Source of the DNA: Malacoraja senta
Taxonomy: Eukaryota
Assembly (NCBI GenBank): GCA_038087875.1
Contig: CM075987.1
Span: forward strand, 18,168,001 to 18,232,000
Reading direction: 5' to 3'
DNA length: 64,000 bases
This document shows, piece after piece, positions 1,808 to 27,271 of the stretch. The position numbers and the translations under genes are program-made. The notes below the pieces were generated by a model that made no database searches, had not been told where the DNA came from, and worked only from the letters and a program-made list of their open reading frames with translations. Position 1 is the first letter of the stretch. Every line of letters begins with the position of its first letter.

Positions 1808-3691
1808 TCAATTATCAATATAAAAGTCTGAGAGTTCTGTGCCGGAGTTTGTGCTTTCTTCGGGACCCTCAAATTGCACATGGAAATCGCTTTCCCCTAG
1901 CCTATCCATGCCACGTGATGAATGATGTGGCGGTGGGGTGTGTCCACTGACATAGTGGGGGGGGCCTGCCATCCACGGGTATGCCATAGAACGGGATTCC
2001 ATCCTTGCCTGTGGGCAAAACACATAAGCGTATCAATATGTATCGGTGCCAAACAAATCTTATAAAACAAATCACAACCTTTCACAAGCTGTGTGTTAGA
2101 GACAATCTTGAGTCAGGCTGAAGACTCACAAATGTTTCACAGTGTGCCTGGGGAGGATATTGTGGTGGCATCATCATGGTTTGTTGCAGTGGCACTAATG
2201 GCATGGGCCTCATCGGACTCTGCAACACAAAGAAAATCGTAGTAAATGATTCATAGACAGCATTAAATTAAAACTTTTATAAATTCAATAAACTTTGATT
2301 AAAATATTTTACTGGCAGAGCAAATCTGTGTGCCCTTGCCAAGGACAATCCCTCTATGCTGTAGTGTTGCCAATTTTCCTCAGGGATCAAAAACATCTCC
2401 TCCTTCAGTAACATTGCGTAAGCATGGACGATCCTTTCCTGCGACGTCCTTGGCTGTGACAAAACGTTTATCATGCCCGACGTTGTCTTTGCCTGTTGCA
2501 TGATCTGCAACAAGAGAGTACAATCATGATAATTATATTGTGGGATGCGATGGAGAAACGTGGACGTAGGGCGGAGTGAAAGAGATTTGATGATGGGTAA
2601 TCCAAAAGCACTTACATCCGTGAACATCTCCCGTTGAAGACCTTGAACAGCCACCTCGCTATCTGACGCAGTTGTGCAGGCCCGCTTCCGTTTTGCGTGC
2701 TGCTGCAGTTCGACAGCAGTGCATGACCCGGATGGTCCATCTGAGGGTCCCTCTAGCGGATCAGGCTCGCCCTCACTCGAGTCCGCGCACGTTGATACAC
2801 CCACAGTACACTTGAAGAAAGTGAATGCATATCATAAATGTGCAAGGTCATCAGGACGTAGCAAGAAAAGTGAATACCAAGTTATCATTGTTAAAATATT
2901 TTTGACTGACTTGCCGACAAATATTAATTGTCACATAATTTTCGTAATTATTCACCTTCCTGCAACTTTCCTTCCTCTGCACTCTTACAATGTGGTCCCG
3001 CACGAACCCCCATTTTTCATATATCCACTGGTCTCTGTCAGTCAGTGTCCTACTGCCAGAGCCAGACTTGCGAAGACTTTGAGAAATTTTCCCGAACCGT
3101 GTCCTCTGACTCTTTAGCCATTGACACAATTGGTCATCTGTGAAAACATAGAATAAATGAAGATAAGTGTTGAGCAACTTATAATATGAATTGGGACTTC
3201 AATTACAAACACAGAAATGTAGATAAACTACAAATTATGTACTTACAAGAGCAGTCAGGGAACTCCTTCACCTTTTCTCCAATTCTGACGTTGCGGAGAC
3301 CCCTGTTCCTAAAATCACGGTGGGTCTTGTCATACAGCTCATGGTGGGCCTGATACCATTCCACCAGGTCCCCCTCTTGTTCCCTTGAAAAATTATATGG
3401 CTTTGAGCCAGACCTGTTCCACACCCATGCAGGGACATAAGCTGGAGCAGGAGATGGGCCAGCAGATGGGGCAGCAGATGGGGAAACAGATGAGGCAGCA
3501 GATGGAGAAGCAGATGGGGCAGCAGATGTGGAAGCAGATGGGGCAGGAGATGGGGCAGGAGATGGGACAGGTAATGAAGCAGGGGCAGGGGCAGGAGCAG
3601 TGGCTGGACCCTCCAGTACCTGAATGTTTTCCATTATTACTTTTTTTACTTTGTCCTGCATCGATCTTCTTACACTCCTTGTTCTCCTCAT
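1808..3691 (-). CDS. Harbinger accessory MADF/Myb-SANT-like DNA-binding protein, 6 exons, ~434 aa
   Basis: Exons 3691-3247, 3137-2956, 2810-2616, 2504-2313, 2219-2130 and 2008-1808 join in frame (1305 nt) across five GT-AG introns of 93-145 nt. MADF-like segment LVEWYQAHHELYDK...WLKSQRTRFGK...KSGSG...WIYEKWGFVRDH; Pro/Ala/Ser-rich N-terminus. Confidence 0.82.
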
Positions 3692-5262: not shown

Positions 5263-5607
5263 GAGAGTCGGACTCTGGTAAGGCGACGGCTGCGGCCCAC
5301 TGGTGGGCGGTGGAATGGCCACGGCCGGCAGAGCTGCAGGGAGTGGAGTGGCACACGGGCGAAGCGTCGGGAGTGCCTGTCAGTGGATAAACGGGAAGGC
5401 AGTGAGGGTGGATGGCTCCGGTGAGGCAGCGAGGGTCGGCAGTGTCGCTGAAGGTCGGCGGCAACGGCCACAGGTGAGGCCGCGTTGGAGAGGTCCATGA
5501 CAGCGTCATCCTTGGTGATCCAGGCCCGAGATCGGTCAGGAAGGCAGTGAGTGTTGGTGCTGCTCCTCGTGGCAGCAATGGTGTCATGGGGCTGTCAGTT
5601 CTGCCTG

Positions 5608-5831
5608 TCCCTTACTCCCCCAAGCTGGCTACCTACCATTCCCCTTACTCCCCCAAGTTGGCTACCTCCCATTTCCCTTACACCCCCAAGCTGGCTACCT
5701 ATCATTCCCCTTACTCCCCCAAGCTGGCTACCTACCATTCCCTTTACTCCCCCAAGTTGGCTACCTCCCATTCCCCTTACTCCCCCAAGCTGGCTTCCTC
5801 CCATTCCCCTTACTCCCCCAAGCTGGCTTCC
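5608..5831 (+). repeat. 33-bp minisatellite, ~7 units
   Basis: Unit TTCCCCTTACTCCCCCAAGCTGGCTACCT(A/C)CCA; a more diverged copy lies at ~51555-51820. Confidence 0.9.
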
Positions 5832-5990
5832 ACCGCACTGTGACGGGCTGTGGGTCAGCAGCGCTCACATACGGGGCCGCGGCTCCGGGCAACGGACACA
5901 CGGGGCCAGCAACATACCCGTCAGTCTGGTCCCTCCGCCCACCCAGAGTCACTGACCACACTGCACCGGCACTGGCACCATGACCCCCCA

Positions 5991-6320
5991 CCAGGGTGAT
6001 TCACTCCCCCCCGACCCACACACCGGGGTGATTCACTTCCCCCGACCCACACACCGGGGTGATTCAACACCCCCCGACCCACACGCCGGGGTGATTCACT
6101 CTCATTCACCCCCACTGGACCCACACACCGGGGTGATTCATCCCCCACCCCCCGACCCACACACCGGGGTGATTCACACCCCCCGACCCACACATCGGGG
6201 TGATTCATCCCCCACCCCCCGACCCACACACCGGGGTGATTCACCCCCCACCCCCCCCGACCCACACACCGGGGTGAGTCACCCCCCCCCCGACCCACAC
6301 ACCGGGGTGATTCACCCGGG
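5991..6320 (+). repeat. Tandem array of 9 units with constant core GACCCACACACCGGGGTGATTCA and variable C-rich linkers
   Basis: Read directly; only about one unit exists in the paralogous copy at ~52020-52075. Confidence 0.88.
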
Positions 6321-7147
6321 TTTCCGTGTTGACTATGCCTGAACCCCTCTGTCGGTGGATCACCAGCTTCCTGACAGACAAGAAGCAGCATGTGAGGGTG
6401 GGAAAGCACATCTCGGATCCACAAACGCTCAGCATAGGAGCACCGCAAGATGCGTACTCTCTCCTCTCCTCTACTCTCTCTACACCAATGACTGCACCTC
6501 CACTAACTCCTGTCAAGCTTCTCAAGTTTGCGGATGACACAACCCTGATTGGACTGATCCAGGATGGGGAGGAATCTGCCTACAGACAGGAAGTGTCACA
6601 ACTGGCATCATGGTGCCATTGCAACAACCTAGAGCTCAATGCTGTTAAGACAGTGGAATTGATTGTAGACTTTAGGAGAGTTCCCCCTCCCCTCACCCCA
6701 CTCACCATCAACAACACCACAGTTGCATCTGTGGAGTCTTTTAAGTTCCTAAGAACAATCATCTCCAAGGACCTTAAGTGGGGGGCTACCATCGACTCCA
6801 CAGTCAAAAAGGCACAACAGAGGATGTGCTTCCTACGGCAGCTGAGGGGGCACAATCTGCCACAGGCAATGATGGTCCAATTCTACACGGCCATCGTAGA
6901 GTCTGTCCTCACCTTCTCCATCATGGTCTGTGCAGATTGGTTATTGCATGAGAACCAAACAGAGCAGTGTAGCATCATTAACACATTAACCCCACCTTAC
7001 TGTACACTTTATATTAACACCCACTTCCTACATTAAGCAGTCTTGGAAGCGGGAGTGGTGAGCTAACAACCTGATGTACCGCTCTGCCATATGTTATATA
7101 TTAAAGATGACTTAAACTCAAGACCCGTGGTCCTTTAATCATTAACA

Positions 7148-7184
7148 TGGTGTCAGAAGTGGGATACGAACCCATGCCTCCATT
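7148..7184 (-). other. Primer-binding site extended into a partial tRNA-Leu copy (3' ~37 nt including CCA)
   Basis: TGGTGTCAGAAGTGGGATaCGAACCCAtGCCTCCATT is the reverse complement of the vertebrate tRNA-Leu 3' end (...TGGAGGCGTGGGTTCGAATCCCACTTCTGACACCA, recalled from memory) with two mismatches. Confidence 0.8.
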
Positions 7185-7697
7185 TGGACCTGCACCATTG
7201 GATCTGCACGATCATAGCAGCTGCACGATTGCAGCGCATCATGATGCAGCTCCAGCGGTTCGACTTCAGAATCGTTTACAAAAAAGGAAAGGACATGCTC
7301 GTTGCCGACACTCTCTCTCGTGCACCACGTGCATCTAGTGAACGACATCCCTATGAATGTGATGAACTTACGGTTCTCAAGGTTGACTTCGTTCCCACGG
7401 AACGCCTGCGTTGCCTGGCTGAACACAAAGCCACTGACGGCACTCTACAGCTACTCTCATCCATTATCAAAAGAGGCTGGCCAGACAAGACAATCTAGCA
7501 CACCACTGGAGGTGCAGCCGTTCTTCCTAGTCCGCGATGAACTGGTAATACAAGACGGAGTCATTGTTAAAGGTCACAAGTCAAGTCAAGTCAAGTCACA
7601 TTTAGTTATATAGCACATTTTAAAAAAAAACTCTCGTTGGCCAAAATGCTTTACATTTGTTATAAGAATAGCACAAACAAAACAAACTACATACATA

Positions 7698-9371
7698 GGT
7701 ACACAAAAATGCTGGAGAAACTCAGCGGGTGCAGCAGCATCTATGGAGCGAAGGAAATAGGTAACGTTTCGGGCTGAAACCCTTCTTCAGAATGATAGGG
7801 GGTGGGAAGAAGAAAGGAAAAAAGGAAAAAGGCGGAGGAGGAGCCCGAGGGCTGGGGGGGGGGGGAGGAGACAACCAGACGGCTGATGAAGGGGAGGGGA
7901 CAGCAAGGGCTAGCAGAATTGGGAGAATTCAATGTTCAAGCCCCCAGGATGTAGACTGCCCAAGCGGAATATGAGGTGCATTTCCTCCAATTTACGGTGT
8001 TGCTCGCTGTGGCCATGGAGGAGACCCAGGACAGAGAGGTCAGATACGGAATGGGAGGGGGAGTTGAAGTGCTGAGCCACCGGGAGGTCAGGTTGGTTAT
8101 TGCGGACCGACCGGAGGTGTTCGGCGAAACGATCGCCAAGCCTCCGCTTGGTCTCACCGATGTAGATCAGCTGGCATCTAGAGCAGCGAATGCAATAGAT
8201 GAGGTTGGAGGAGATGCAGGTGAACCTCTGTCGCACCTGGAACGACTGCTTGGGTCCTTGAATGGAGTAGAGGGGGGAGGTGAAGGGACAAGTGTTGCAT
8301 CTCTTGCGGTTGCAAGGGAAAGTACCAGGGGAGGGGGTGGTATGGGAGGGAAGGGAAGAATTGACAAGGGAGTTACGGAGGGAGCGGTCTTTGCGGAAGG
8401 CAGACATGGGGGGAGATGAGAAGATGTGGCGAGTGGTGGGGTCACGTTGGAGGTGGCGAAACTGACGGAGGATCATTTGTTGTATGTGACGGCTGGTGGG
8501 GTGAAAGGTGAGGACTAGGGGGACTCTGCCCTTGTTGTGAGTGGGGGATGGGAAGAGAGAGCAGTGTTGCGGGGTATGGCAGAGACCCTGGTGCGAGCCT
8601 CATCTATGGTGGAGGAGGGGAACCCCCGTTCCCTGAAGAATGAGGACATTTCAGATGCCCTGGTGTGGAACGCCTCATCCTGGGAGCAGATGCGGCGTAG
8701 ACGGAGGAATTGGGAGTGGGGGATGGAGTCCTTACAGGAAGCAGGGTGGGAAGAAGTGTCGTCCAGATAGCCATGGGAGTCGGTAGGTTTGTAGTGGATG
8801 TCGGTAAGGAGTCTATCACCTGCGATGGAGATAGTGAGGTCAAGGAATGGTAGGGAAGTGTCGGAAATGGTCCACGTGTATTTGAGTGCCGGATGGAAGT
8901 TGGTGGTGAAGCGGATGAAGTCAGTCAGTTGTGTGTGGGTGCAGGATGTGGCACCAAAACAATCATCGATGTAGCGGAGGTAGAGGTCGGGGATGGGGCC
9001 CTGGTACGCATTGAACAAGGATTGTTCTACGTACCCGACAAAGAGGCAGGCGTAGCTGGGGCCCATGCGTGTGCCCATAGCTACGCCTTGTATTTGGAGG
9101 AAATGGGAGGAGTCAAATGAAAAGTTATTAAGTGTAAGGACCAGCTCCGCTAGGCGGAGGAGGGCGTCAGTGGCCGGGTATAGATTGCTTCTACGGTCGA
9201 AGAAAAAACGGAGGGCTTCGAGACCATCCTGGTGGGGGATGGAGGTGTACAATGACTGGACGTCCATGGTGAAGATGAGGGGGTGAGGGCCTAGAGAGTG
9301 GAATGCGCGGAGATGACGGAGAGTGTCTGAGGTGTCTTGAACATAGGTAGGGAGGGATTTAACCAAGGGGG
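7698..9371 (-). mobile_element. Penelope-like element, 5'-truncated (RT, GIY-YIG endonuclease, pLTR)
   Basis: RT motifs TMDVQSLYTSIPH, QIQGVAMG, RYIDD; endonuclease LIYCIRC...IYIGETKR...RFAEH...GLN; 14-bp TSD AAACTACATACATA (7684-7697, 9372-9385). Confidence 0.93.
7761..7790 (-). ncRNA. Minimal hammerhead-ribozyme core in the Penelope pLTR
   Basis: Minus strand CTGAAGA-AGGGTTTCAGCCC-GAAACGTTA has the CUGANGA/GAAA core; stem I pairing looks poor. Confidence 0.6.
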
Positions 9372-11332
9372 AAACTACATACATATATACATGTAGCCCT
9401 CACTCAGAGGACATCAGGAAAGGCTTGGGAGTATAGATAAGTCTTTAGTCTTATCTATCACAAAGTCGTGATCCCGTCATCCTTGCAAGACGAATACTAC
9501 AAAGAGGCACACAACGGTCACCCAGGCACCGAGGCCACGTTGGCTCATGCACAGAGCATGTTCTATTGACCTGGGATGACCAAGTACATATGGGACAGAA
9601 CAGCATCCGGCCCCATCTGCTACAGTTTGGCACCACACCAACAGAAACAGCCTCTGCTACAACAACAACAGCCTTGGATATCTCTGGCAGCAGACATTTT
9701 CAAATGGCACTGTAAACACTACATAGTCCTAGTCGCCTCCTACTCCAACTGGTTCGAACTCGATTTACTGCCCACCATCACATCCGACATGGTTATACAA
9801 AAGCTACGGAGACACTTTTCCGTATTCGGCACACCAGTCCATCTGCAAACTGACAACGGAAGACAATTCACCAGCTATGCATTTAAACACCTTGCCAACC
9901 GATGGAACTTCCACCATGTCACAAGCAGCCCCTGGATACCCCCAAAGCAACGGGCTCGCTGAATGTGCCATCAGGAGGACAAAACAACTAATGGAACGCT
10001 CCCACCTGGCCAAGCCAGATGTTTATCTGGACCTTATAAACCTCAGAAACATTTCCAGAGACGGGGTCCCGGGTTCACCAGCTCAACGCCTGATGTCTCG
10101 GACAACACGACCTCCGATACCAATTGCCCAGCAACAGCTGAAGCCACAGGTGTTTAAACCAGCCGCGGTCCAGAAGCGCATTCAGGAGAAACACAACATT
10201 CAGAAGCGCTCTTATGACAAGTCCAGCAAACCACTGAAGCCGCTACTGCATGGTCAAGTTGTCCATCTGCAGACTGCTGTAGGATATTCCCGTCTGGGTT
10301 TCATGGTCGACCCGTCGAAGGAACCCCGCTCCTACCTTGTCAACGTCCATGGTGTCCTGTACAGACGGAGCCACCAACATTTGCTGCTTGTAAACGAACC
10401 TCGACCACCTCCAGCTGATCCATTTGCTCCACCCATGCTGTTTAAACCCCCTGCTGCTCCTGCCACCACTAGTGCCAGTGTGCGCTCTCCACCACGGTCA
10501 GCAACCCCATCTAACGTTACCTCTACTGCATGCTCACCTCACTGGTCGCCCCAAGTGTCCCCAGCTGCTTTCTCCTTTCCGGGTTCACTGCCTCCCTCCC
10601 CTACTAACTTTTCTAGTACGGAGGAAGAGGGGTTTGTCCGTAAGCGTTTGGGTTGTATACTATTAGTAGACCGCCTGACAGATACGGCGAGTATGTTTAA
10701 ATCCGTGTGTTTAACCTTTGCCTAACTATCTTTACTCTTTACGGGGAAGGATGTAGATTGGTTATTGCATGTAAACCAATCAGAGTAGTGTAGCATCATT
10801 AACTCATTAACCCCACCTTATTGTACACTTTATATTAACACCCACTTCCTACATTAGGCAGTCTTGTAAGCGGTAGTGATGAGCTAACAACCTGATGTAC
10901 CGCTCTGCCATATGTTATATATTAAAGATGACTTAAACACTAGACCCGTGTTCCTTTAATCATTTACATTCTGGTTTGGCTCAGCCACCAAGCACGACAC
11001 CTGGAGGCTGCAGCGAATCATCCAATCAGCTGAGAAGGTTATTGGCTGCAACCTTCCCTCCATTGATGAACTGTACACTGCAAGGGCCAGGAAGCGAGCG
11101 GGCAAGATCATCTCTGACCCCTCTCACCCTGGCCACAAACTCTTTGAATCACTTCCCTCTGGAAGGTGACTCCGGACTGTCAAAGCTGCCACAGCCAGAC
11201 ATAAAAACAGTTTTTATCCACGAGTAGTTGCTCTACTCAACAGCCAAAAATCTGTAGCCTCCCTTTGATCTGGTATTTTGTTGGTTCACATGCTTGATCA
11301 ATGGTGTTTTATCATTAATGTTTTGTGTTTTT

Positions 11333-14300: not shown

Positions 14301-15797
14301 TAATTTTTCAAAACTCCTTACATTCTGGAGTAGTTCCTGAGGATTGGAGAGTAGCTAATGTAACCCCACTTTTTAAAAAGGGAGGGAGAGAGAAAACGGG
14401 GAATTACAGACCAGTTAGTCTAGCATCGGTAGTGGGGGAAACTGCTAGTCAGTTATTAAAGATGGGATGGCAGCACATTTGGAAAGTGGTGAAATCATTG
14501 GACAAAGTCAGCATGGATTTACGAAAGGTAAATCATGTCTGACGAATCTTATAGAATTTTTCAAGGATGTAACTAGTAGAGTGGATAAGGGAGAACCAGT
14601 GGATGTGTTATACCTGGACATTCAGAAGGCTTTCGACAAGATCCCACACAAGAGATTAGTATACAAACTTAAAGCCCACGGTATTGACGGTTCAGTATTG
14701 ATGTGGATAGAGAACTGGCTGGCAAACAGGAAGCAAAAAGTAGGAGTAAACGGGTCCTTTTCAGAATGGCAGGCAGCGACTAGTGGGGTACCGCAAGGCT
14801 CAGTGCTGGGACACCAGCTATTTACAATATATATTAATGATTTGGACGAGGGAATTGAATGCAACATCTCCAAGTTTGCGGATGACACGAAGCTGGGGGG
14901 GCAGTGTTAGCTGTGTGGAGGATGCTAGGAGGCTGCAAGGTGACTTGGATAGGCTGGGTGAGTGGGCAAATGCATGGCAGATGCAGTATAATGTGGATCA
15001 ATGTGAGGTTATCCACTTTGGTGGCAAAAACAGGAATTAGACTATTATCTAAATGGTGGCTGATTAGGAAAAGGGGAGATGCAGCGAGACCTGGGTGTCA
15101 TGGTACACCAGTCATTGAAAGTAGGCATGCAGGTGCAGCAGGCAGTGAAGAAAGCAATTGGTATGTTATCATTCATAGCAAAAGGATTTGAGTATAGGAG
15201 CAGGGAGGTTCTACTGCAGTTGTACAGGGTCTTGGTGAGACCACACCTGGAGTATTGCGTACAGTTTTGGTCTGAAGAAAGACATTCTTGCCATAGAGGG
15301 AGTACAGAGAAGGTTCACCAGGCTGATTCCTGGGATGTCAGGACTTTCATATGAAGAAAGACTGGATAGACTCGGCTTGTACTCGCTAGAATTTAGAAGA
15401 TTGATGGGGGATCTTATAGAAACTTACAAAATTCTTAAGGGGTTGGACAGGCTAGATGCAGGAAGATTGTTCCCGATGTTGGGGAAGTCCAGGACAAGGG
15501 GTCACAGTTTAAGGATAAGGGGGAAATCTTTTAGGACCAAGATGAGAAAAACATTTTTCACACAGAGAGTGGTGAATCTGTGGAATTCTCTGCCACAGAA
15601 GGTAGTTGAGGCCAGTTCATTGGCTATATTTAAGAGGGAGTTAGATGTGGCCCTTGTGGCTAAAGCGATCAGGGGGTATGGAGAGAAGGCAGGTACAGGA
15701 TACTGAGTTGGATGATCAGCCATGATCATATTGAATGGCGGTGCAGGCTCGAAGGGCCGAATGGCCTACTCCTGCACCTATTTTCTATGTTTCTATG
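11333..15797 (+). mobile_element. Near full-length, degenerate CR1 LINE (HER1-like)
   Basis: 5' UTR with three tandem units; ORF1 with Cys motif and SGNH esterase (IGDSIVR, VVVHIGTNN, DGLHLN); frameshifted ORF2 APE+RT ([28 protein letters not shown]); (TTTCTATG)n tail. Confidence 0.93.
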
Positions 15798-15899
15798 CTT
15801 GAGTCATTCGTAACTGTCACTGTATGTCATATTGTTACTTGTGGGTGGAGCACCAAGGCAAATTCCTTGTATGTGAATACTTGGCCAATAAACTTATTT

Positions 15900-17430
15900 A
15901 AAGAAAGCAGACAGCAACAAAATTATTATAGGTAAACCAAAGCAATCTTTCAATCAATTTGTCAGACGGGAGTGGCGAGATCTACAAAGAGCACACACGT
16001 TGCTCAGTGCTTCTCAGCCTCCACTCAATAAACAAAGGAAGGTTAGTGTAATACTTGTTCTTATCAATAAAACACAACCTAAATCTGAGTGAAAAATCTG
16101 TAGCCAAATGAAAAGGGAGGCTGGACCCATATATTTGCAATGTCAGCCTTATTCTCAAATCTTGGCACAGCTTCTGTACAGTTGCCCATTTTGGAAGGTC
16201 AACTAACTCCATTTTGTTTTCAAATGACTTCCATCTTGGTTCCAGAATGGGCATCCGTCTGTGAACTAAAACACGCTTGTAAGACTTGGATGAAAGCCAC
16301 TACCTTGTCCTTAGCTGGGGCAGGCAGTTCAGACAGATATCTAATATGGTGCTGTGCCCAGACAATACATCTCTATGTTAATACATTGTTTCAATGATTA
16401 GTATAAACCAAGCTTGTAAGATTTTCCCAGACTTTATTCTGCTGGGAAAATTCTCTTTTAAATTTGACTGCTTTCTGTTTTTCAGCAAATCTCCATTTTA
16501 ATTTACGAACCAAACATGACCAAATTAAACTCTTTCACAGTGAGGTCAGGATAATCTTGCATTATTTGTTACGTAAGACACAAATGCGTCAAAACTTTCT
16601 TTAAAAAAACACTTTAAAATGCCTTTACGTTTTGGGCCAGTGGCAGCCAGCTGGTACTGTGAGCAATCGGCTGTGTGCAGCTTGGCTCACTATTGCATTT
16701 TCACTTGGGTACAGTATGAATGAGAAGATGCTGGTACTGTTCATTGTCTGATCCTCGACAGGGGCAAGGAGGGCTTATAGAAGGAACACTTCTCCATCCA
16801 TTTTCCACCACGGATGGCTGACCTGCTGAGTTCTACCGGCACTTTGGAGGGGATAGGACGGGCGACGTGTCGGGTCTGGACACTGCTGTTCCTCCATCTT
16901 GCGCGTCACCTTGTCAAAGTTTGTCTCTTAAAAAGCAGATAGCAACAAAATTGTTAAAGGTAAACCATGGCAATCTTTAATTGATTCGTCAGACGGGAGT
17001 GGCAAGATCTACAATGAGCACAAACGTTGCTCAGTACTTCTCGGGCTCCACTCTCGGAACAAAGGAAAGTTAGCACAATTATACACTTTTCTTAACAGTA
17101 AAACCCTCCTACCGAGTATGAATATGGCACGACTGTAAGCTTCTATAGCCTTTCAGAATATAGGAAAAGCAGGGCCTAAACAAGCTCATCCAATAACAAG
17201 TTATTACATATCTCTGGAGCGTCAGCTATTTTTTTCAATCTTGGCTTCTGTATGGCCTTGAAAGAAGCACGTTATTATGTAGGCTTCCATCTAATGTCTT
17301 TATTAAAAAGACAACCTGTCCTCCATATTATGTTCCATATAATTTGCAAAGTCATTCAGACTTGCACCGAGCCATTCTTTTGTTCTACTAGACAATGCTT
17401 TTGTAGAGAACGACTCCATTTTAGATTTGA
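15900..17430 (-). pseudogene. Possible degenerate TIR-domain-like coding relic (also ~23800-24310, 52600-53026, 54659-54835)
   Basis: Short minus-strand motifs SFDAFVSY (behind an AG acceptor), RLCFIDK/KLCLLNKDI, KAIEAYSRAIFIL and LFIEW; many stops and frameshifts. Confidence 0.35.
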
Positions 17431-17439
17431 CTATTAGCT

Positions 17440-17585
17440 CTTTCAACCTCACTCTGGCAATGGAGGCGGCCCAGGACAAAAAGATCAGTGTGGGAGTGGG
17501 AAGGGAGTTTAAATGGTTGACAACCGGGAGATCTAGCAGGCCTTGGCAGACTGAGTGCAAGTGTAGTGTGAAATGCACGCCTAGT
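17440..17585 (-). mobile_element. Penelope endonuclease fragment (duplicate at ~24325-24470)
   Basis: Minus strand RLGVHFTLHLHSVCQGLLDLPVVNHLNS resembles RLGDRFAEHLRSV...DLPVAQHFNS at 7910-8476. Confidence 0.7.
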
Positions 17586-17599
17586 CTAGATACAAGAAG

Positions 17600-18697
17600 A
17601 CTGCGTGTGTGAGAAAGAGCTTTAGTGAGAGAGCATGTAAGAGTGTGTGTGAGAGAGTGTGTGAGTGAGAGTATGTGTGTGAGAGTATGTGTGAGAGAGT
17701 GCGTGTGTGAGTGTGTGAGTGTGTGAGAGAGTGCGTGTGTGAGAGAGCGTGTGTGAGAGAGTGCGTGTGTGAGTGCGTGTGAGAGAGTGCGTGTGTGAGT
17801 GCGTGTGTGAGAGTGCGTGTATGAGAGTACGTGTGTGAGAGTGCGTGTGAGAGAGTGCGTGTGTGAGCGAGTGCGTGTGTGAGAGTGCGTGTGTGAGAGC
17901 AAGAGAGAGAGGGAGTGTGTGAGAGAGAGGGACTGTGTCTGTGTGTGTGTGTGAGGGGGAGGGGGGGAGGTGGGGGGGTGGGGGGGGAGGGGGGGTGTGG
18001 CGGAGAGAGAGGACTGTGTGTGTGTGTTGTGGGTGAGAGTGGAGAGAGAGAGAGAGAGGGAGTGTTTGGTGTGTGTGAGAGAGGGGACTGGCATGTGCGA
18101 GAGAGCGGGGAGTGTTTGTGAGAGAGAGCAAGAGAGAGGGGAGTGTGTGTGGAGAGAGAGAGAGAGCGGGTGTGTGTGGAGAGAGGGAATGTGTGAGAGA
18201 GAGCAAGAGAAGAGAGGGAGTATGAGTGAGAGAGGGAATGTGTTGAAAGACAGCAAGAGAGAGTAAGAGGGAGTGTGGTGAGGTAGTTGTGTGAGAGAGA
18301 GGCTAGAGAGAGAGGATGTGTGCGTGAGAGCAAGAGAGGTTGTGTGAGACAGCAAGAGGGCTGCGTGTGTGAGAGTGTGTATGAGATAGAAAGAGGATGT
18401 GTGTGTGAGAGAGAACAAGAGAGAGAACAAGAGAGAGAGGGAGTGTGTGTGTGAGAGGGGGGTGGGGGAGAGGGACGGAGGAGATGTGGGGAAGGAGAAG
18501 CTATCTATTTCTGAGTGGGGGAGGCACCGAGGGAAGGGGTGTCAAGGGTGTGTGTGAGAGACAGCAAACGAGAGAGGGGACTGTGTGAGAGAGAGGGAGC
18601 GAGAGAGGGAGTGTGTGAGACAGAGGGGACACAGAGGGGTGGAGTGGAGAGAATTTGTGTATGAGTGGGGGGGAGAGAGTGTTGAGAGGGAGAGAGG
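17600..18697. repeat. Compound (GT)n/(GA)n microsatellite mosaic (duplicate ~24485-25520; diverged ~54838-55090)
   Basis: Read directly. Confidence 0.9.
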
Positions 18698-19321
18698 ACA
18701 TGTATATGTGCAGCTTTAAGGGATATTGGTCAGGTAAGCATTTGGAGTATTGCATACAGTTCTGGTCACTCCATTACAGGACTGATGTGGAGGCTTTGGG
18801 GAAGGTGCAGAGATGGTTAAACAGGATGTTTAAAAACAAGGAACTGCAGATGCTGGTTTACAAAAAAGAACACAAAATGCGGGAGAAACTCAGCGGACAG
18901 GCAGCATCTCTGGAGAGAAGGAATTGGTGACATTTCGGGTCGAGACTGAAGAAGGGTCATGATACGAAACGTTACCCATCTTCCTCCCCCTCTGCCCCAG
19001 CATTTTGTGTCTACATAAACAGTGCCTATCCACGTGGCGGTGTGCCAGCAGGCCGGAGGAGCGGGCAAAGGCCTTGCCATAGAGTGGGCAGGTGAAGGGG
19101 CGCTGGCTGGTGTGGACTCGCCGGTGCACCAGCAGGTGGTCAAGGTGGGTGAAGCCCTTACCACAGGACGTGCAGGGGAAGGGACGCTCACCGCTGTGGG
19201 TACGCCGGTGCTGGCCACAGGCTGGTCATGCAGGTGAAACACTTGCCACACTCTGCGCACACAAAGGGTCTCTCTCCTGTGTGTATCCGCTGGTACTTCC
19301 AGCAGCCCCCGTGCATTCTTG

Positions 19322-20473
19322 TCACAGTGGGAGCAGTTGCTCGCCGGCATGGGTCCGCCGGTGTAGCCCGCAACCCCCCGCGAGCTGTCAAACTCCTCAC
19401 CGCAATGCGGACAGTCGTAGGGCTGGCCACTGGTGTGCACGCACTGGTGAGACAGGGCCTTGGGAGGCCATGGTAAAGCGCTCTCCAGACACTGGGCTGG
19501 GAAGGGATGGTCGCTGGCGTGGCACCCGCTGGTGGTACAGCAGCTTGGTGGAGCAGGTGAAGCCCTTGCCACACTTGGTGCAGGTGTAGGGACGCTCGCC
19601 GGTGTGGGTGCCGCTGGTGCTCCAGCAGGGTGATGGACTGGGTGAAGCCCTTGCCCGCACTGGGTGCAGGTGTAGGGACGCTCCGCCGGTGTGGGTGCGC
19701 TGATGCACCAGCAGGTTGCTGGACTGGGTGAAGCCCTTGCCGCACTGGGCGCAGGTGTAGGGGCGCTCGCCGTTGTGGGTGCGCTGGTGCTTCAGCAGGT
19801 TGCTGGAGTGGGTGAAGCCCTTGCCGCACTGGGCGCAGGTGTAGGGGCGCTCGCCTGTGTGGGTACGCTGGTGGAACAGCAGGTGAGTGGACTGGGTGAA
19901 GCCCTTGCCGCACTGGATGCAGGTGATAGGGACGCTCGCTGGTGTGGGTGCGCTGGTGCACCAGCAGGTTGCTGGAATGGGTGAAGCCCTTGCCGCATTC
20001 GCGGCAGGTGTAGGGCCGCTCGCTGGAGTGGGTGCGCTGGTGCTCCAGCAGGTTGCTGGAGCGGATGAAGCCCTTGCCGCAGTCGCTGCAGGTGTAGGGA
20101 CGCTCCCCGGTGTGCAGGCGCCTATGCTGCTTCAGGTGTGTGGACAACTTGAAGTCTTTGCCGCAGTCGGAGCAGGTGAAGGGCCGCTCACTGCTGTGCA
20201 CCCGCCGGTGATCCTTGCAGCCCCGACAACCGGGCAAAGCTCTTGCCGCAGGTGGACCAGCCATAGGGCTTCTCACCCGTGTGCACCCCGCCGGTGTCTC
20301 TTCAGGTCATACGCCCTCGTAAAGTCCTTGTCGCAGTCGGAGCAGTCGAAGGGGTCGTTCTCCCCGTGTGAACCCGCCGGTGGATCTCCAGCTGGCTAGG
20401 CTTCTGCCAGGCCTTGCCACACACGTCACACTCATAACGTTTCTCCTTGTTGTGCCCCAATGTGGTCCTCCAT
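19322..20473 (-). CDS. C2H2 zinc-finger gene copy A (about 13 fingers, no KRAB seen); frameshifted as assembled
   Basis: Repeated CxxC...HxxxH with TGERPY/F linkers. Acceptor CCCCTCCTGCAG ends at 20597; start MEDH at 20473; stop after GEQLLPL. Its indels differ in position from those of copy B. Confidence 0.8.
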
Positions 20474-20695
20474 CGAGGCTCAGCCCCTCCAAGCTCAGCT
20501 GCAGATGGGGGGGGGGGGGGGCTCGCCGGCACCCTGGCCGCCCTCAATGGCTGTTCACGTCCCCGTGTCTCCGTCCACAGCCACGGCTACTAGACCCTGC
20601 AGGAGGGGAACACAGAGGGTCAACAAGCTGGCAAACAGGACATTACTAGAACATATTGGGTGTGTTTATGGCGGAGGAAACCGTTATATAATTCT

Positions 20696-20971
20696 GCGCG
20701 GCACAGTGGCACAGTTGCTGCCTCACCGCAAGAGACACTGGCTCGATCCTGACCGCTGTCTGCGTGGCGTTTGTACGTTCTCTTCTTGGTCTGCGTGGGT
20801 TTTTACTCCGGATGCTCCAGTTTCCTCTCCAACATTTCAAAGACGTTCAGTGTTGTAGATTAATCGGCCACCGCAAAATTGATAAATTGTCTCTAATGTG
20901 CGTCAGATAGTGCTGGTCAACGGGGTGACCACTGGTCGTCGCGGACCGAAAGGTGCATCTCTAAACTAAAC
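20696..20971 (+). mobile_element. tRNA-derived V-SINE (HE1-like); duplicate at 27501-27778
   Basis: V-domain-like core GTTTGTACGTTCTC...TGCGTGGGTTT...CCGGATGCTCCAGTTTCCTC and (CTAAA)n tail. Confidence 0.8.
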
Positions 20972-21055
20972 CAAGGAAGGGTTTCGACAATAAATGTCCC
21001 CCATTCCTTCTCTCCACAGATGCTGCCTGTCCTGCTGAATTACTCCAGCACTTTG

Positions 21056-21912
21056 TAGGCTGGGTGAGTGGGAAAATGTTTGGCAGATGCTGTATAATTG
21101 TGGAAAAATGTGAGGTTATCCACTTTGGTGGCAAAAACAGGAAAGCAGACTATTATCTAAATGGTGGCCGATTAGGAAAACGGGGAGATGCAGCGAGACC
21201 TTGGTGTCATGGTACACCAGTGATTGAAAGTAGGCATGCAGGTGCAGCAGGCAGTGAAGAAAGCGAATGGTATGTTAGCTTTCATAGCAAAAGGATTTGA
21301 GTATAGGAGCAGGAGGTTCTACTGCAGTTGTACAGGGTCTTGTGAGACCACACCTGGAGTATTGCGTACAGTTTGGTCTCCAAATCTGAGGAAGGACATT
21401 ATAGCCATAGAGGGAGTGCAGAGAAGGTTCACCAGACTGATTCCTGGGATGTCAGGACTTTCATATGAAGAAAGATTGGATAGACTCGGCTTATACTCGC
21501 TAGAATTTAGGAGATTGAGAGGGGATCTTATAGAAACTTACAAAATTCTTATGGGGTTGGACAGGCTAGATGCAGGAAGATTGTTCCCGATGTTGGGGAA
21601 GTCCAGGACAAGGGGTCACAGTTTAAGGATAAAGGGGAAATCCTTTAAGACCGAGATGAGAAAAAACGTTTTCACACAGAGAGTGGTGAATCACTGGAAC
21701 TCTCTGCCACAGAGGGTAGTTGAGGCCAGTTAATTGGCTATATTTAAGAGGGAGTTAGATGTGGCCGTTGTGGCTAAAGGGATCAGGGGGTATGAGAGAA
21801 GGCAAGTATGGGATACTGAGTTGGATGATCAGCCATGATCATATTGAATGGCGGTGCAGGCTCGAAGGGCCGAATGGCCTACTCCTCCACCTATTTTCTA
21901 TGTATCTATGTA
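21056..21912 (+). mobile_element. 5'-truncated CR1 3' end (duplicate ~27865-28722)
   Basis: RT C-terminus (RRLRGDLIETYK, RTRGH) and 3' tail. Confidence 0.9.
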
Positions 21913-22177
21913 TCTATCTTCTCCACAGATGCTGCCTGTCCTGCTGAATTACTCCAGCACTTTGTGTCTATCTTCTCCACAGATGCTGCCTGACCCGCTG
22001 AGTTACTCCAGCACTTTGTGTCTACATCACAGATGCTGCCTGTCCCGTTAATTACTCCAGCACTTTGTGTCTATCTTCTCCACAGATGCTGCCTGACCCG
22101 CTGAGTTACATCAGCACTTTTTGTGTCTATCTTCTCCGCAGATGCTGCCTGACCTGCTGAGTTACTCCAGCACTTTC
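21913..22177 (+). repeat. About 5 tandem ~54-bp units derived from the Penelope pLTR (also ~28722-28986, ~57000-57150)
   Basis: Unit CACAGATGCTGCCTG.CC.GCTGA.TTACTCCAGCACTTTGTGTCTATC resembles the reverse complement of pLTR 7700-7745. Confidence 0.8.
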
Positions 22178-23342
22178 TCATAGAGATACAGTGTGGGAAA
22201 AAGGCCCTTTGGCCCAACTTGCCCACACTGTCCAAAATGTCCCAGCTACACTAGTCCCACCTGTCTGCGCTTGGCCCATATCCCTCCAAACCTGTCCAAT
22301 CCACGTACCCATCTAACTGTTTATTAACATTGGGATAGTCTCAGCCTCAACTACCTCATCTGGCAGCTCGTTTCATACACCTTTATTGTGTGAAAAAGTT
22401 ACCCCTCAGGTTCCCCTTCACCTTGAACCCATGTCCTCTGGTCATCGATTCCCCACTCTGGCGCAAGAGACTCTGTGCGTCTACCCGATCTATTCCCTCA
22501 AGAATTTATAAGTTCTCCATAAGATCACCCCTCATCCTCCTGTGCTCCAAAAAAATAAGGGCCCAGCCTACTCTGATATAGTAGTGGCCAGAGGATCTGG
22601 GGTGACGGAGGAACTGAAGGAAATCCACATTAGGCAGGAAATGGTGTTGGATGAACTGATGGGACTGAAGGCTGATAAATCCCCAGGGCCTGATGGTCTG
22701 CATCCCAGGGTACTTAAGGAAGGGCTCTAGAAATCGTGGATGCATTGGTGATAATTTTCCAATGTTCTATTGACTCAGGATCAGTTCCTGTGCATTGGAG
22801 AGTAGCTAATGTTATCCCACTTTTTAAGAAAGGCGGAGAGAAAAAACAGGGAATTATAGAAGTTAGCTTGACATCGGTGGTGGGGAAGATGCAGGAGTCA
22901 ATTATAAAAGATGAAATAGGTGAACATTTGGATAGCAGTAACAGGATCGGTCTCAGCATGGATTTACGAAGGGGGAATCATGCTTGACTAATCTTCTGGA
23001 ATTTTTGAAGATGTAACTAGGAAAATGGACAGGGAGAGCCAGTGGATGTAGTGTACCTGGACTTTCAGAAAGCATTTGATAAGGTATAGAGACCGGTCCT
23101 GTTGCTCAGAAGGGTAAGGAAAAGAAGAGGAGGGCAATATTAATAGGGGACTCTATAGTTAGGGGTCAGACAGGCGATTCTGTGGACGCCAGTCGGAGAC
23201 CCGGATGGTAGTTTGCCTCCCTGGTGCCAGGGTCTGTGATGTGTCCCAACGTGTCCAAGACATCCTGAAAGGGCAGGAGAGAGAGCCCGAGGTCGTGATA
23301 CATGTAGGTACCAATGACATAGGTAAAAAAAGAGAAGAGGTC

Positions 23343-23542
23343 NNNNNNNNNNNNNNNNNNNNNNNNNNNNNNNNNNNNNNNNNNNNNNNNNNNNNNNNNN
23401 NNNNNNNNNNNNNNNNNNNNNNNNNNNNNNNNNNNNNNNNNNNNNNNNNNNNNNNNNNNNNNNNNNNNNNNNNNNNNNNNNNNNNNNNNNNNNNNNNNNN
23501 NNNNNNNNNNNNNNNNNNNNNNNNNNNNNNNNNNNNNNNNNN
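23343..23542. other. Assembly gap (200 N)
   Basis: Run of N. Confidence 1.
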
Positions 23543-26129
23543 GTGGCCTGCAGCTGGCTCCAATCGTATTAGGCATTTTCACTTGGGTACAAGTATGAAT
23601 GAGAAGATGCTGGTACTGTTCATTGTCTGATCCTCGACAGGGGCAAGGAGGGCTTATATAAGGAACACTTCTCCATCCATTTTCCACCACGGATGGCTGA
23701 CCTGCTGAGTTCTACCGGCACTTTGGAGGGGATTGGACGGGCGACGTGTCGGGGTCTGGACACTGCCTGTTCCTCCATCTTGCGCGTCACCTTGTCAAAG
23801 TTTGTCTCTTAAAAAGCAGATAGCAACAAAATTGTTAAAGGTAAACCATGGCAATCTTTAATTGATTCGTCAGACAGGAGTGGCAAGATCTACAATGAGC
23901 ACAAACGTTGCTCAGTACTTCTCGGGCTCCACTCTCGGAACAAAGGAAAGTTAGCACAATTATACACTTTTCTTAACAGTAAAACCCTCCTACCGAGTAT
24001 GAATATGACACGACTGTAAGCTTCTATAGCCTTTCAGAATATAGGAAAAGCTGGGCCTAACAAGCTCATCCAATAACAAGTATTACGTATCTCTGGAGCG
24101 TCAGCTATTTTTTTCAATCTTGGCTTCTGTATGGCCTTGAAAGAAGCACGTTATTATGTAGGCTTCCATCTTAATGTCTTTATTAAAAAGACAACCTGTC
24201 CTCCATATTATGTTCCATATAATTTGCAAAGTCATTCAGACTTGGCACCGAGCCATTCTTTTGTTCTACTAGACAATGCTTTTGTAGAAGAACGACTCCA
24301 TTTTAGATTTGACTATTAGCTCTTTCACCTCACTCTGGCAATGGAGGCGGCCCAGGACAAAAAGATCAGTGTGGGAGTGGGAAGGGGAGTTAAAATGGTT
24401 GGCAACCGGGAGATCCAGCAGGCCTTGGCAGACTGAGTGCAAGTGTAGTGTGAAAGGCACGCCTAGTCTAGATACAAGAAGACTGCGTGTGTGAGAAAGA
24501 GCTTTTGTGAGAGAGCATGTAAGAGTGTGTGTGAGAGAGTGTGTGAGTGAGAGTATGTGTGTGAGAGTATGTGTGTGAGAGTGCGTGTGTGAGTGCGTGA
24601 GTGTGTGAGAGAGTGCGTGTGTGAGAGTGCGTGTGTGAGAGTGCGTGTGTGAGTGCGTGTGAGAGAGTGCGTGTGTGAGTGCGTGTGTGAGAGTGTGTGT
24701 GTGAGGAGTGCGTGTGAGAGAGTGCGTGTGTGAGAGAGTGCGTGTGTGAGAGCAAGAGAGAGAGGGAGTGTGTGAGAGAGAGGGACTGTGTCTGTGTGTG
24801 TGTGTGTGTGAGGGGAGGGGGGAGTGTTGTGTTGTGTGCGAGAGAGAGGGACTGTGTGTGTGTGTGTGTGAGAGTGAGAGAGAGAGAGGGAGTGTTTGTG
24901 TGTGTGAGAGAGGGACTGCATGTGTGAGAGAGCGGGAGTGTTTGTGAGAGAGAGCAAGAGAGAGGGAGTGTGTGTGAGAGAGAGAGAGAGCGGGGTGTGT
25001 GGTGAGAGAGGGAATGTGTGAGAGAGAGCAAGAGAGAGAGGGAGTATGTGTGAGAGAGGGAATGTGTGAAAGACAGCAAGAGAGAGTAAGAGGGAGTGTG
25101 TGAGAGGTAGTGTGTGAGAGAGAGCAAGAGAGAGGATGTGTGCGTGAGAGCAAGAGAGGTTGTGTGAGACAGCAAGAGAGGGCTGCGTGTGTGAGAGTGT
25201 GTATGAGATAGAAAAGGATGTGTGTGTGAGAGAGAACAAGAGAGAGAACAAGAGAGAGAGGGAGTGTGGTGTGAGAGGGGGTGGGGAGAGGGACGGAGGA
25301 GATGTGGGGAAGGAGAAGCTATCTATTTCTGAGTGGGGGAGGGCACCGGAGGGAAGGGGTGTCAAGGGTGTGTGTGAGAGACAGCAAACGAGAGAGGGAC
25401 TGTGTGAGAGAGAGGGAGCGAGAGAGGGAGTGTGTGAGACAGAGGGGACACAAGAGGGTGGAGTGGAGAGAATTTGTGTATGAGTGGGGGGGGGGGAGAG
25501 AGTGTTGAGAGGGGAGAGAGGAATGTATATGTGCAGCTTTAAGGATATTGGTCAGGTAGCATTTGGAGTATTGCATACAGTTCTGGTCACTCCATTACAG
25601 GACTGATGTGGAGGCTTTGGGGAAGGTGCAGGATGGTTAACCAGAATGGTTTAAAAACAAGGAACTGCAGATGCTGGTTTACAAAAAAGAACACAAAATG
25701 CGGGAGAAACTCAGCGGGACAGGCAGCATCTCTGGAGAGAAGGAATTGGTGGCATTTCGGGTCGAGACTGAAGAAGTGTCATGATACGACACGTTACCCA
25801 TTCCTTCCAGCATTTTGTGTCTACATAAACAGTGCCTATCCACGTGGCGGTGTGCCAGCAGGCCGGAGGAGCGGGCAAAGGCCTTGCCCATAGAGTGGGC
25901 AGGTGAAGGGGCGCTGGCTGGTGTGGACTCGCCGGTGCACCAGCAGGTGGTCAAGGTGGGTGAAGCCCTTACCACAGGACGTGCAGGGGAAGGGACGCTC
26001 ACCGCTGTGGGACGCCGGTGCTGCCACAGGCTGGTCATGCAGGTGAAACACTTGCCACACTCTGCGCACACAAAGGGTCTCTCTCCTGTGTGTATCCGCT
26101 GGTACTTCCACAGCCCCCGTGCGTTCTTG

Positions 26130-27271
26130 TCACAGTGGGAGCAGTTGCTCGCCGGCATGGGGTCCGCCGGTGTAGCCGCAACCCCCGCGAGCTGTCAAAC
26201 TCCTCACCGCAATGCGGGCAGTCGTAGGGCTGGCCACTGGTGTGCACGCACTGGTGAGACAGGGCTTGGGAGGCCATGGTAAAGCGCTCTCCAGACACTG
26301 GGCTGGGGAAGGGATGGTCGCTGGCGTGCACCCGCTGGTGGTACAGCAGCTTGGTGGAGCAGGTGAAGCCTTGCCACACTTGGTGCAGGTGTAGGGACGC
26401 TCGCCGGTGTGGGTGCGCCTGGTGCTCCAGCAGGGTGATGGACTGGGTGAAGCCCTTGCCGCACTGGGTGCAGGTGTAGGGACGCTCGCCGGTGTGGGTG
26501 CGCTGATGCACCAGCAGGTTGCTGGACTGGGTGAAGCCCTTGCCGCACTGGGCGCAGGTGTAGGGGCGCTCGCCGTTGTGGGTGCGCTGGTGCTTCAGCA
26601 GGTTGCCGGAGTGGGTGAAGCCCTTGCCGCACTGGGCGCAGGTGTAGGGGCGCTCGCCTGTGTGGGTACGCTGGTGGAAACAGCAGGTGAGTGGACTGGG
26701 TGAAGCCCTTGCCGCACTGGATGCAGGTGTAGGGACGCTCGCTGGTGTGGGTGCGCTGGTGCACCAGCAGGTTGCTGGAATGGTGAAGCCCTTGCCGCAT
26801 TCGCGGCAGGTGTAGGGCCGCTCGCTGGAGTGGGTGCGCTGGTGCTCCAGCAGGTTGCTGGAGCGGATGAAGCCCTTGCCGCAGTCGCTGAAGGTGTAGG
26901 GACGCTCCCCGGTGTGGCAGGCGCCTATGCTGCTTCAGGTGTGTGGACAACTTGAAGTCTTTGCCGCAGTCGGAGCAGGTGAAGGGCCGCTCACTGCTGT
27001 GCACCGCCGGTGATCCTGCAGCCCCGACAACCGGGCAAAGCTCTTGCCGCAGGTGGACCAGCCATAGGGCTTCTCACCCGCTGTGCACCCGCCGGTGTCT
27101 CTTCAGGTCATACGCCCTCGTAAAGTCCTTATCGCAGTCAGAGCAGTCGAAGGGTCGTTCTCCCGTGTGAACCCGCCGGTGGATCTCCAGCTGGCTAGGC
27201 TTCTGCCAGGCCTTACCACACACGTCACACTCATACCGCTTCTCCTTGTTGTGCCCCATGTGCCCCATCAT
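26130..27271 (-). CDS. C2H2 zinc-finger gene copy B (near-identical to A); frameshifted as assembled
   Basis: Same finger series as copy A; acceptor ends at 27402. Confidence 0.78.

Follow-up and report, generated by a model that had tools for sequence, protein, structure and literature searches.

A probable reverse-transcriptase over-run into the primer tRNA at the deletion junction of an LTR retrotransposon in Malacoraja senta

How does a long terminal repeat (LTR) retrotransposon come to lose nearly everything between its primer-binding site (PBS) and its integrase, and why does the copy of its primer tRNA at that break run on past the usual 18 nt? The question is raised by a locus in a 64,000-nt stretch of the Malacoraja senta genome (assembly GCA_038087875.1, contig CM075987.1, positions 18,168,001 to 18,232,000, forward strand; hereafter the window), in which positions 6931–10968 are one integrated, internally deleted Ty3/gypsy-like LTR retrotransposon. 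In LTR retroelements generally, a tRNA primes the synthesis of minus-strand DNA from the PBS, and plus-strand DNA, which starts at the polypurine tract, copies the LTR and then the tRNA still attached to the minus strand. For the element in the window it is very probable that the plus strand over-ran position 58 of its tRNA-Leu primer and then underwent an aberrant second-strand transfer, the misread bases being a footprint of tRNA methylation. A preliminary description of the sequence had proposed that reverse transcriptase (RT) read through position 58 on its own primer and then switched template, which would explain the deletion; the proposal is supported by the analysis reported here, in which the tRNA tail sits at the deletion junction.

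The primer-tRNA copy and the deletion junction

The features of the 5' part of the element are as follows (window coordinates, strand in brackets).
6931–7147 (+): 5' LTR, 217 nt, with TG...CA ends; a genome search finds a second copy in the window at 93% identity.
7148–7165 (+): PBS, complementary at 18/18 positions to the 3' end of host tRNA-Leu (CAA or CTTCTGACA-type CAG) plus CCA.
7166 (+): A for an expected T, opposite tRNA position 58, from alignment to the 3' end of tRNA-Leu(CAA).
7166–7190 (+): read-through copy of the primer tRNA, with the T loop and T stem at 7166–7181 and the variable arm from 7182 to ~7188–7190.
7191–7215 (+): junction filler, whose 3' limit is uncertain (~7209–7215).
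7216–7583 (+): pol remnant, comprising the final residues of RNase H and the integrase N-terminal region (..APARLQRIMMQLQRFDFRIVYKKGKDMLVADTLSR..), 93.5% identical to a relative (locus L086).

When the window was aligned to the reverse complement of the tRNA-Leu(CAA) gene 3' end plus CCA, the first 18 bases of the copy (7148–7165) were identical throughout. Base 19 (7166) is A where T is predicted, bases 20–27 (7167–7174) match, base 28 (7175) is T for C, a CpG-to-TpG change, bases 29–35 (7176–7182) match, and base 36 (7183), which faces the C of the variable loop (4 nt), is T for G. Beyond 7183 the copy reads TTGGA and, after a 2-nt gap, CC ending at 7190. The segment from 7166 to ~7190 corresponds to positions 58 to ~44 of the host tRNA-Leu(CAA), and the tRNA-derived sequence as a whole is ~41–43 nt long; complementarity beyond 18 nt through the T arm into the variable arm had been described previously and is borne out by the host gene, whereas the extent then given, ~37 nt, was too short. 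A chance origin of the extension is excluded, a 17-mer of positions 19–35 with up to 2 mismatches having a single match in the 64-kb window (7166–7182) and none in 100 shuffles. ARAGORN found 0 tRNA genes in the whole window, and Rfam, at E up to 10, gave zero matches on 7050–7300; both are silent because a 43-nt piece from the 3' end of a tRNA is too short for either.

The host genes themselves fix what the primer should have read. A pattern search recovered two tRNA-Leu(CAG) genes (L063/L064, which equal L072/L073), the last 34 nt of which equal the PBS plus extension, and a search with the 5' half of Leu(CAG) gave 14 places, including three intron-containing tRNA-Leu(CAA) genes (L074, L077 and L078) with the same acceptor end as the Leu(CAG) genes. 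Every host tRNA-Leu gene found has A at position 58, so that T is expected at 7166, and the A noted there in the preliminary description is a true departure from the template; the match of these genes to 7148–7190 extends well past 18 nt. CCA is not encoded by the tRNA-Leu genes found here, and no tRNA gene for another primer occurred among the 94 genomic loci retrieved.

The tail lies where the rest of the element breaks off. In a genome search with 7148–7560, for which the best 40 of 1091 candidates were scored, all 39 other copies align only from 7213–7217 onward, at 89–94% identity, and upstream of ~7216 they read ..TDHQPLVTILNKPIHA, the end of RNase H. From 7216, the border between RNase H and integrase, the window is again homologous to these relatives as far as the 3' LTR, a nested insertion aside; the window's tail junction was not found in any other copy among the 40 scored. 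The fuller relative, read as two overlapping loci (L009 and L086) that were kept separate, has after its PBS a leader and a gag that includes a CCHC knuckle, then a protease motif, RT and RNase H, followed by the same APARLQRMMMQLQRF. Pfam identifies RVT_1, RT_RNaseH and Integrase_H2C2 in it, and its PBS lies ~2.55 kb from the acceptor point; it has stops, and 350 nt of integrase core present in the window copy are missing from it. Judged against this relative, the window copy is without ~2.5 kb, from the leader through gag, protease and RT to all but the end of RNase H.

The jump to late pol with loss of gag, protease and RT, as earlier described, is thus confirmed, except that the junction is not direct. 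Between tail and acceptor lies the filler at 7191–7215, which is neither tRNA nor colinear pol and is recognized as filler from the fact that other copies match only from 7213–7217. Joined to the end of the tRNA copy, it makes up two imperfect 14–15-nt units, ATT(T)GGA(C/T)CTGCAC(C/G), and CTGCAC occurs again at the acceptor site, so the filler looks like the product of repeated switching between tRNA and acceptor. The RNase H coding sequence of the family contains TATGCCTCC(C/T)GCACCATGACGG 161 nt upstream of the acceptor, and the filler contains CTGCACCAT. A first landing site next to a GCCTCC common with the tRNA was considered as a candidate and not used, the order of the pieces misfitting a simple model.

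The locus combines a complete 5' LTR and PBS, sequence of the same tRNA continuing beyond position 58, an insert of that tRNA at an internal-deletion junction, and downstream sequence colinear to the 3' LTR. The tRNA tail, the stuttered filler and many independent parallels with other acceptors favour a deletion made during reverse transcription over a later chromosomal one, for what is in itself a single fossil. We infer the following order of polymerase events. A tRNA-Leu would have primed the minus strand, and the plus strand from the polypurine tract would have copied the LTR and then the attached tRNA. Copying of the tRNA would have overrun the 18 nt, passed through position 58 and the T stem into the variable arm and ended ~41–43 nt in, leaving a tailed end that could not anneal to the minus-strand copy of the PBS. 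This end may then have stuttered, leaving filler with repeated ATTGGA..CTGCAC units, and synthesis would have restarted on minus-strand DNA ~2.5 kb downstream, at the RNase H/integrase border (7216). The two-LTR product would have integrated with a 5-bp duplication, and repair or replication would have fixed the deleted strand. Misincorporation, opposite 1-methyladenosine (m1A) at position 58 and opposite a variable-loop C methylated on its Watson-Crick face, is the best reading of the wrong bases at 7166 and 7183.

Tailed elements across the genome and the bases they miscopy

The window event is far from isolated, being one of hundreds in the genome. In searches that covered the 1.94-Gb genome, the T-arm extension with up to 2 mismatches occurs at 684 places, compared with 0 for the reversed pattern. 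Thirty of these loci were retrieved: directly upstream of the extension stands TGG in 29 and TAG in 1, an LTR-type CA end precedes this triplet in 29/30, and the loci carry at least 11 different LTR ends and mostly distinct downstream sequence. A tRNA gene (L074) accounts for 1 of the first 100 listed extension places. From the other side, sites with a perfect 18-nt Leu PBS, 16 unconstrained bases and then a base other than G number 1179, and the first 100 comprise 40 tRNA tails (positions 20–27 with up to 2 mismatches) spread over at least 12 LTR families, 2 short or gapped tails, 54 unrelated leaders from several families and 4 ambiguous cases, a tail fraction that applies to sites with a perfect PBS. 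Tails at C1:166078503, C4701:16986, C1743:48608, C1:184567239 and C1:198052416 contain re-copied tRNA segments, which appear to be the same kind of stutter as the window filler.

Some tails also recur. The same tail and junction stand on dispersed contigs at C1:247338653, C5:30039405, C5:32759939 and C6142:181885, and further dispersed same-junction tails at C1:325921725, C10:18357537 and C3527:4232, from which it follows that certain deletion derivatives of read-through went on to spread as non-autonomous elements with the tail kept.

The base copied from position 58 is highly variable across these elements. With base 19 left free in the otherwise exact 34-mer, the genome holds T in 188 copies, A in 60, C in 31 and G in 8 (searches gave A 60, C+G+T 227 and C+G 39; the 8 G were counted from the full list and T 188 obtained by subtraction). 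Position 19 is therefore non-T, mostly A, in 99/287 copies whose other 33 bases are intact. When four non-CpG neighbours were freed instead as a control, 188 of 201 copies were exact and 13 changed, or ~1.6% per position, and the difference from position 19 is extreme (Fisher p = 3.7e-49). The 25 non-T copies with visible downstream bases have 24 distinct junctions, by coordinates cross-referenced by hand. A site-specific error across copies, a host A58 and a non-complementary base at 7166 are what a misincorporation footprint of m1A58 would leave.

Expressed for the tRNA strand, 61% of the errors are A-to-T, 31% A-to-G and 8% A-to-C. According to Hauenschild et al. 2015 (PMC4787781), m1A causes misincorporation and the C signal is low when m1A precedes A; m1A followed by A is the context here, and 8/99 errors read as C can be set beside that low signal. 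The m1A58 of tRNA-Leu CAA/CAG is among those rising upon T-cell activation (review PMC13191261), which agrees with partial methylation and with the correct T in two thirds of the tails. The earlier suggestion that an RNA modification is recorded in DNA accordingly stands as regards a site-specific error at position 19, the methylation itself being suggested by the errors and by data from other species.

Two further sites were scored in hand-classed listings, and their counts are weaker than the position 58 data. Places reaching ..GGAGACCAGAA (tRNA position 38) number 71, of which 67 are tails and 4 are tRNA genes (three retrieved, and one classed from its intron end). The base opposite the variable-loop C is G in the tRNA genes, and in the 67 Leu(CAA) tails it is A in 43, G in 13, C in 6 and T in 5. 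The spread is present in both isodecoder types (..TTGG.. and ..TCGG..), and Leu(CAG)-type tails, in the clear cases, have A, C or T at this site. An unseen Leu(CAA) isodecoder with T at that site would be an alternative source of the A. In zebrafish, 3-methylcytidine (m3C; m3Ce2) at the variable loop is named for Leu-CAG and Ser clusters only (PMC11417395).

The third site is G37. Nine of the 67 Leu(CAA) tails clearly enter the anticodon loop, with A in 5, G in 1 and C in 3 opposite G37, and the others end at or beside position 38, just before it; among Leu(CAG)-type tails continuing past 37, 3/4 have a base other than C opposite G37. Two longer tails may mark a further stop at N2,N2-dimethylguanosine (m2,2G) 26: L040 (G000:C1:46169383 onward) passes G37, with G on the element strand, and ends at position 27 before G26, and L065 (G000:C9:14536906) is a nearly complete tail that extends as far as the D loop, its base at position 37 being changed and a gap lying near 26. 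At L079 (G000:C4936, ~178233–178260, minus strand) a complete spliced tRNA-Leu(CAA) with CCA abuts an LTR-type end (..TTTACACA|TGG..); positions 58, 37 and 26 are all read correctly, as expected of an unmodified template, and the plus strand apparently copied the entire primer to base 1.

Several points weigh against an over-run with methylation-induced misreading. The correct T stands at position 19 in 188/287 read-through copies, so that read-through needs no misincorporation. In an old copy such as this (15/217 LTR differences), a later T-to-A mutation could in principle account for the A at 7166. Methylation of A58 is suggested by the error pattern together with zebrafish and human data. 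The junction is complex, some filler bases were traced to no template, and no clean microhomology was seen between the last tRNA base and the acceptor site. With the best 40 of 1091 candidates scored, a diverged sibling that shares the junction may have gone unseen. The listings of PBS sites, tail junctions, Leu(CAA) tails and Leu(CAG) tails were classed by eye. The genome-wide counts take in segmental duplicates and a few lineages that spread after their event, and are thus numbers of copies, not of events.

The first two of these points lead to the strongest alternative, in which RT read faithfully through an unmethylated A58 and the A at 7166 is an ordinary mutation acquired after integration. 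Faithful read-through is indeed the commoner outcome in otherwise perfect copies, and the age of this copy is also visible in the CpG change at 7175 inside the extension. Control positions, however, change at ~1.6% each whereas A occupies position 19 in 60/287 otherwise intact copies; a T-to-A change in this copy would have a chance of ~1% under this account compared with ~21% under misincorporation; and at 7183, the second hypervariable site, the same copy again departs from the template. This explanation is accordingly unlikely, if the best of those opposed to an over-run with misincorporation.

A second alternative takes the tail as an inherited, functional extended PBS, of the type of the lentiviral 'primer over-extension sequence', and the internal deletion as an unrelated, later chromosomal event. 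Such sequences are described in lentiviruses (review PMC13191261), and the occurrence of the same junctions at 3–4 dispersed places (e.g. ..AGAATGTCGTCAA and ..GCGAGTAGCTCCT) shows that some tailed lineages spread and that a tail can persist through replication. The family members that bear gag-pol tell otherwise, for their PBS is followed by a different leader. One copy (L019) has a perfect 18-nt PBS followed by the leader GACCCACTGCGTCC, and four (L003, L009, L021 and L030) have a partly decayed PBS followed by the same leader, which runs into gag; local alignment of leader with tRNA scored 14, 14 and 12 against a shuffle mean of ~10.4, values reached by 133/2000 (L019), 157/2000 and 524/2000 shuffles and not significant. 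The tRNA-matching stretch is thus not conserved in gag-pol-bearing copies. The canonical leader (GACCCACTGC.TCC..) had also been considered as a decayed tRNA tail, which the comparison with shuffles does not support.

The four gag-bearing copies have in common a PBS that matches the tRNA over its first 10–11 nt (TGGTGTCAGA(A), then AGCGTGA..), and genomic-RNA and tRNA-copied versions of the PBS both seem to persist in the family.

Every tailed lineage in the family, moreover, has its own tail length and acceptor site, and the window junction is unique among the 40 copies scored. The tail is joined to the leader or early gag in L018 (A at position 19), to the gag knuckle in a tandem array on C2 (L004; T), to the 3' untranslated region in the segmental duplicates L013-16/23, L015 among them (T), to the 3' LTR in L010 (A), and elsewhere in L025 (G) and at C1:290943804 (C); in L011 the PBS jumps into RNase H without a tail. 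These differing tail lengths and acceptors indicate independent accidents, not an inherited leader. In the window the tail stands exactly at the deletion junction, with a filler stutter typical of template switching, and an inherited extended PBS is correspondingly very improbable.

A common origin of the window event and that of L010, which both have A at 19 and CCTGC after GGA, was rejected, the L010 tail joining the 3' LTR. The array on C2 (G000:C2:128850355-128853666; L004, L005 and L026) has the tandem order LTR-internal-LTR-internal-LTR with 1552-nt spacing and probably arose, from a read-through derivative of the window's LTR family, by unequal LTR recombination.

A tRNA-derived short interspersed nuclear element or tRNA pseudogene fragment lying by chance beside the LTR is refuted for practical purposes, since the copy starts with the complement of a CCA that the tRNA-Leu genes found here do not encode and abuts the terminal CA of the LTR without a gap, antisense as a PBS requires (the same arrangement in 30/30 loci), ARAGORN and Rfam place no tRNA gene at the site, and a sense tRNA body without CCA and free of the LTR end is not what is seen.

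The element in its surroundings

The remaining features of the locus are these.
6311–6930 (+): 5' part of the RT reading frame of a long interspersed nuclear element (LINE), the insertion target, from the list of open reading frames; it resumes at 10974.
6926–6930 (+): 5' copy of the target-site duplication, GTCTG, from the sequence.
7584–9457 (−): nested later retroelement with RT and GIY-YIG endonuclease, Penelope-like, from the list of open reading frames and Pfam, with boundaries from alignment.
9458–10742 (+): integrase remainder (rve core at ~9715–9935, E 1.7e-9) and 3' internal region, with frame breaks.
10743–10751 (+): polypurine tract GGGGAAGGA, adjoining the 3' LTR, read from the sequence.
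10752–10968 (+): 3' LTR, 217 nt, from genome search and pairwise comparison.
10969–10973 (+): 3' copy of the target-site duplication, TTCTG, from the sequence.

The 5' LTR of the preliminary description was correctly called, for it has a partner at 10752–10968 and a 5-bp duplication inside a LINE frame. The two LTRs (217 and 217 nt) differ at 15 positions with zero indels, the duplication copies GTCTG and TTCTG are identical at 4/5 positions, and excision of the element with one duplication copy restores the LINE frame ..SIMV|WFGSAT.. The LTR pair, the target duplication and the restored frame together establish a single insertion by integrase, as opposed to a chance mosaic. The 3' LTR was not recovered with a 28-mer from the LTR start, exact or near-exact, but was by the genome search, and the LTR pair was not among the top 20 families of a repeat finder.

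The assignment as Ty3/gypsy-like reflects the paired TG..CA LTRs with a short target duplication, the tRNA-complementary PBS and the polypurine tract, and the order protease, RT, RNase H, integrase on the L009/L086 relative (a weak aspartyl protease, RVT_1, RT_RNaseH and Integrase_H2C2); of pol the window copy retains the RNase H end and integrase (rve). Later events visible in the sequence are the 15 LTR differences, one CpG decay and the nested insertion at 7584–9457. The nested Penelope-like element, whose Pfam scores lie below cut-off (RVT_1 25.5 bits against 29.6, GIY-YIG 22.0 bits against 22.6), sits within the integrase N-terminal region, with ~11 nt of the LTR element repeated at both of its ends.

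Elsewhere in the window, a segment of ~6.1–6.9 kb occurs three times at 15271–29532 with 92–99% identity; within it lie C2H2 zinc-finger-like repeats with an 84-nt period, on the minus strand, and long simple repeats rich in GT/GA. Just upstream of the LINE fragment, at 3416–3607, 5576–5872 and 5961–6325, are three minisatellite arrays, their periods being 12, 33 and ~31–36 nt.

Wider meaning and comparison with known systems

For the element in the window, an over-run of the primer would explain the loss of gag, protease and RT in one step and would date it to reverse transcription. More broadly, primer over-runs in this genome reach the germ line often as deleted elements and may be a regular route to non-autonomous LTR elements, and the error spectrum at A58, the variable-loop C and G37 suggests a genomic record of tRNA methylation as seen by a retroelement polymerase. 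The evidence inclines somewhat, if by no great measure, towards a joint proposition: that Leu-primed elements habitually over-run position 58, that the resulting tails feed a population of deleted elements, and that the junctions archive germ-line tRNA methylation.

If this were so, tRNA-tailed strong-stop DNAs would be a major source of internally deleted, non-autonomous elements, and the tails of those that later spread would serve as a ready-made over-extension sequence. The archive would hold at its first site a sub-stoichiometric m1A58, miscopied in 35% of cases and mostly as dA; at its second, a variable-loop C methylated on the Watson-Crick face in both Leu(CAG) and Leu(CAA), with 54/67 Leu(CAA) tails miscopied; and at its third, 1-methylguanosine (m1G) 37, before which most tails stop and which 6/9 Leu(CAA) and 3/4 Leu(CAG) passing tails miscopy, with a possible fourth stop before G26 (L040). 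Past germ-line states of tRNA modification would then be readable from genomes alone. Among the questions opened are how complete m1A58 is on the primer tRNAs of germ cells and how primer choice and modification shape the decay of LTR elements.

Deletions of a related kind have an experimental history. In spleen necrosis virus vectors, in an experimental single-cycle system, Pulsinelli and Temin reportedly described large deletions starting at the PBS in 1991 (J Virol) and attributed them to faulty transfer of plus-strand strong-stop DNA. Hardy et al. 2025 (Commun Biol, PMC12657518) describe 44 proviruses of HIV-1 (human immunodeficiency virus type 1) with tRNA(Lys3) inserts of 7–54 nt at the deletion junction, 5/44 with a change at position 58, as products of 'aberrant/deferred second-strand transfer'. 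The mechanism is already published for HIV-1 and the window feature is a further case: in both, an intact 5' LTR and PBS are followed by tRNA copied beyond position 58, the insert marks a large internal deletion, and insert length varies, from 7 to 54 nt in HIV-1 and from a few nt to the whole tRNA here.

The present case differs from HIV-1 in being a germ-line Ty3/gypsy-like fossil primed by tRNA-Leu, not an exogenous lentivirus, and change at position 58 is far commoner here, at 99/287 against 5/44 (PMC12657518). Further differences are the tails at ~40 of the first 100 perfect Leu PBS sites, the two additional miscopied sites and the pile-up before G37. What is more novel is how often tails occur across the genome and the record of errors at several sites. 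A literature search in which subscription journals were poorly covered found no account of such tRNA tails in chromosomal LTR retrotransposons, and, with the same limited coverage, no use of tRNA tails to read modifications.

RT is known at times to pass m1A58, its next stops lying at modified positions 55, 54 and 37 (PMC13191261; Fukuda et al. 2021, PMC8599865), and the accumulation of tails just before position 37 here resembles these lentiviral minor stops. Lentiviruses, however, carry a short matching sequence, so that short over-runs transfer correctly, whereas the window's family is without such a leader. Over-runs past position 54, according to Fukuda et al. 2021 (PMC8599865), cannot yield integrated DNA; contrary to this, the fossils described here show long over-runs integrated, as deleted forms. 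Finally, the errors at A58, the variable-loop C and G37 are like the RT signatures of m1A, m3C and m1G in tRNA sequencing (PMC4787781; zebrafish tRAM-seq, PMC11417395), with the difference that the cDNA of those studies is made in a tube, whereas here the RT of the element itself made it in vivo and the chromosome preserves it.

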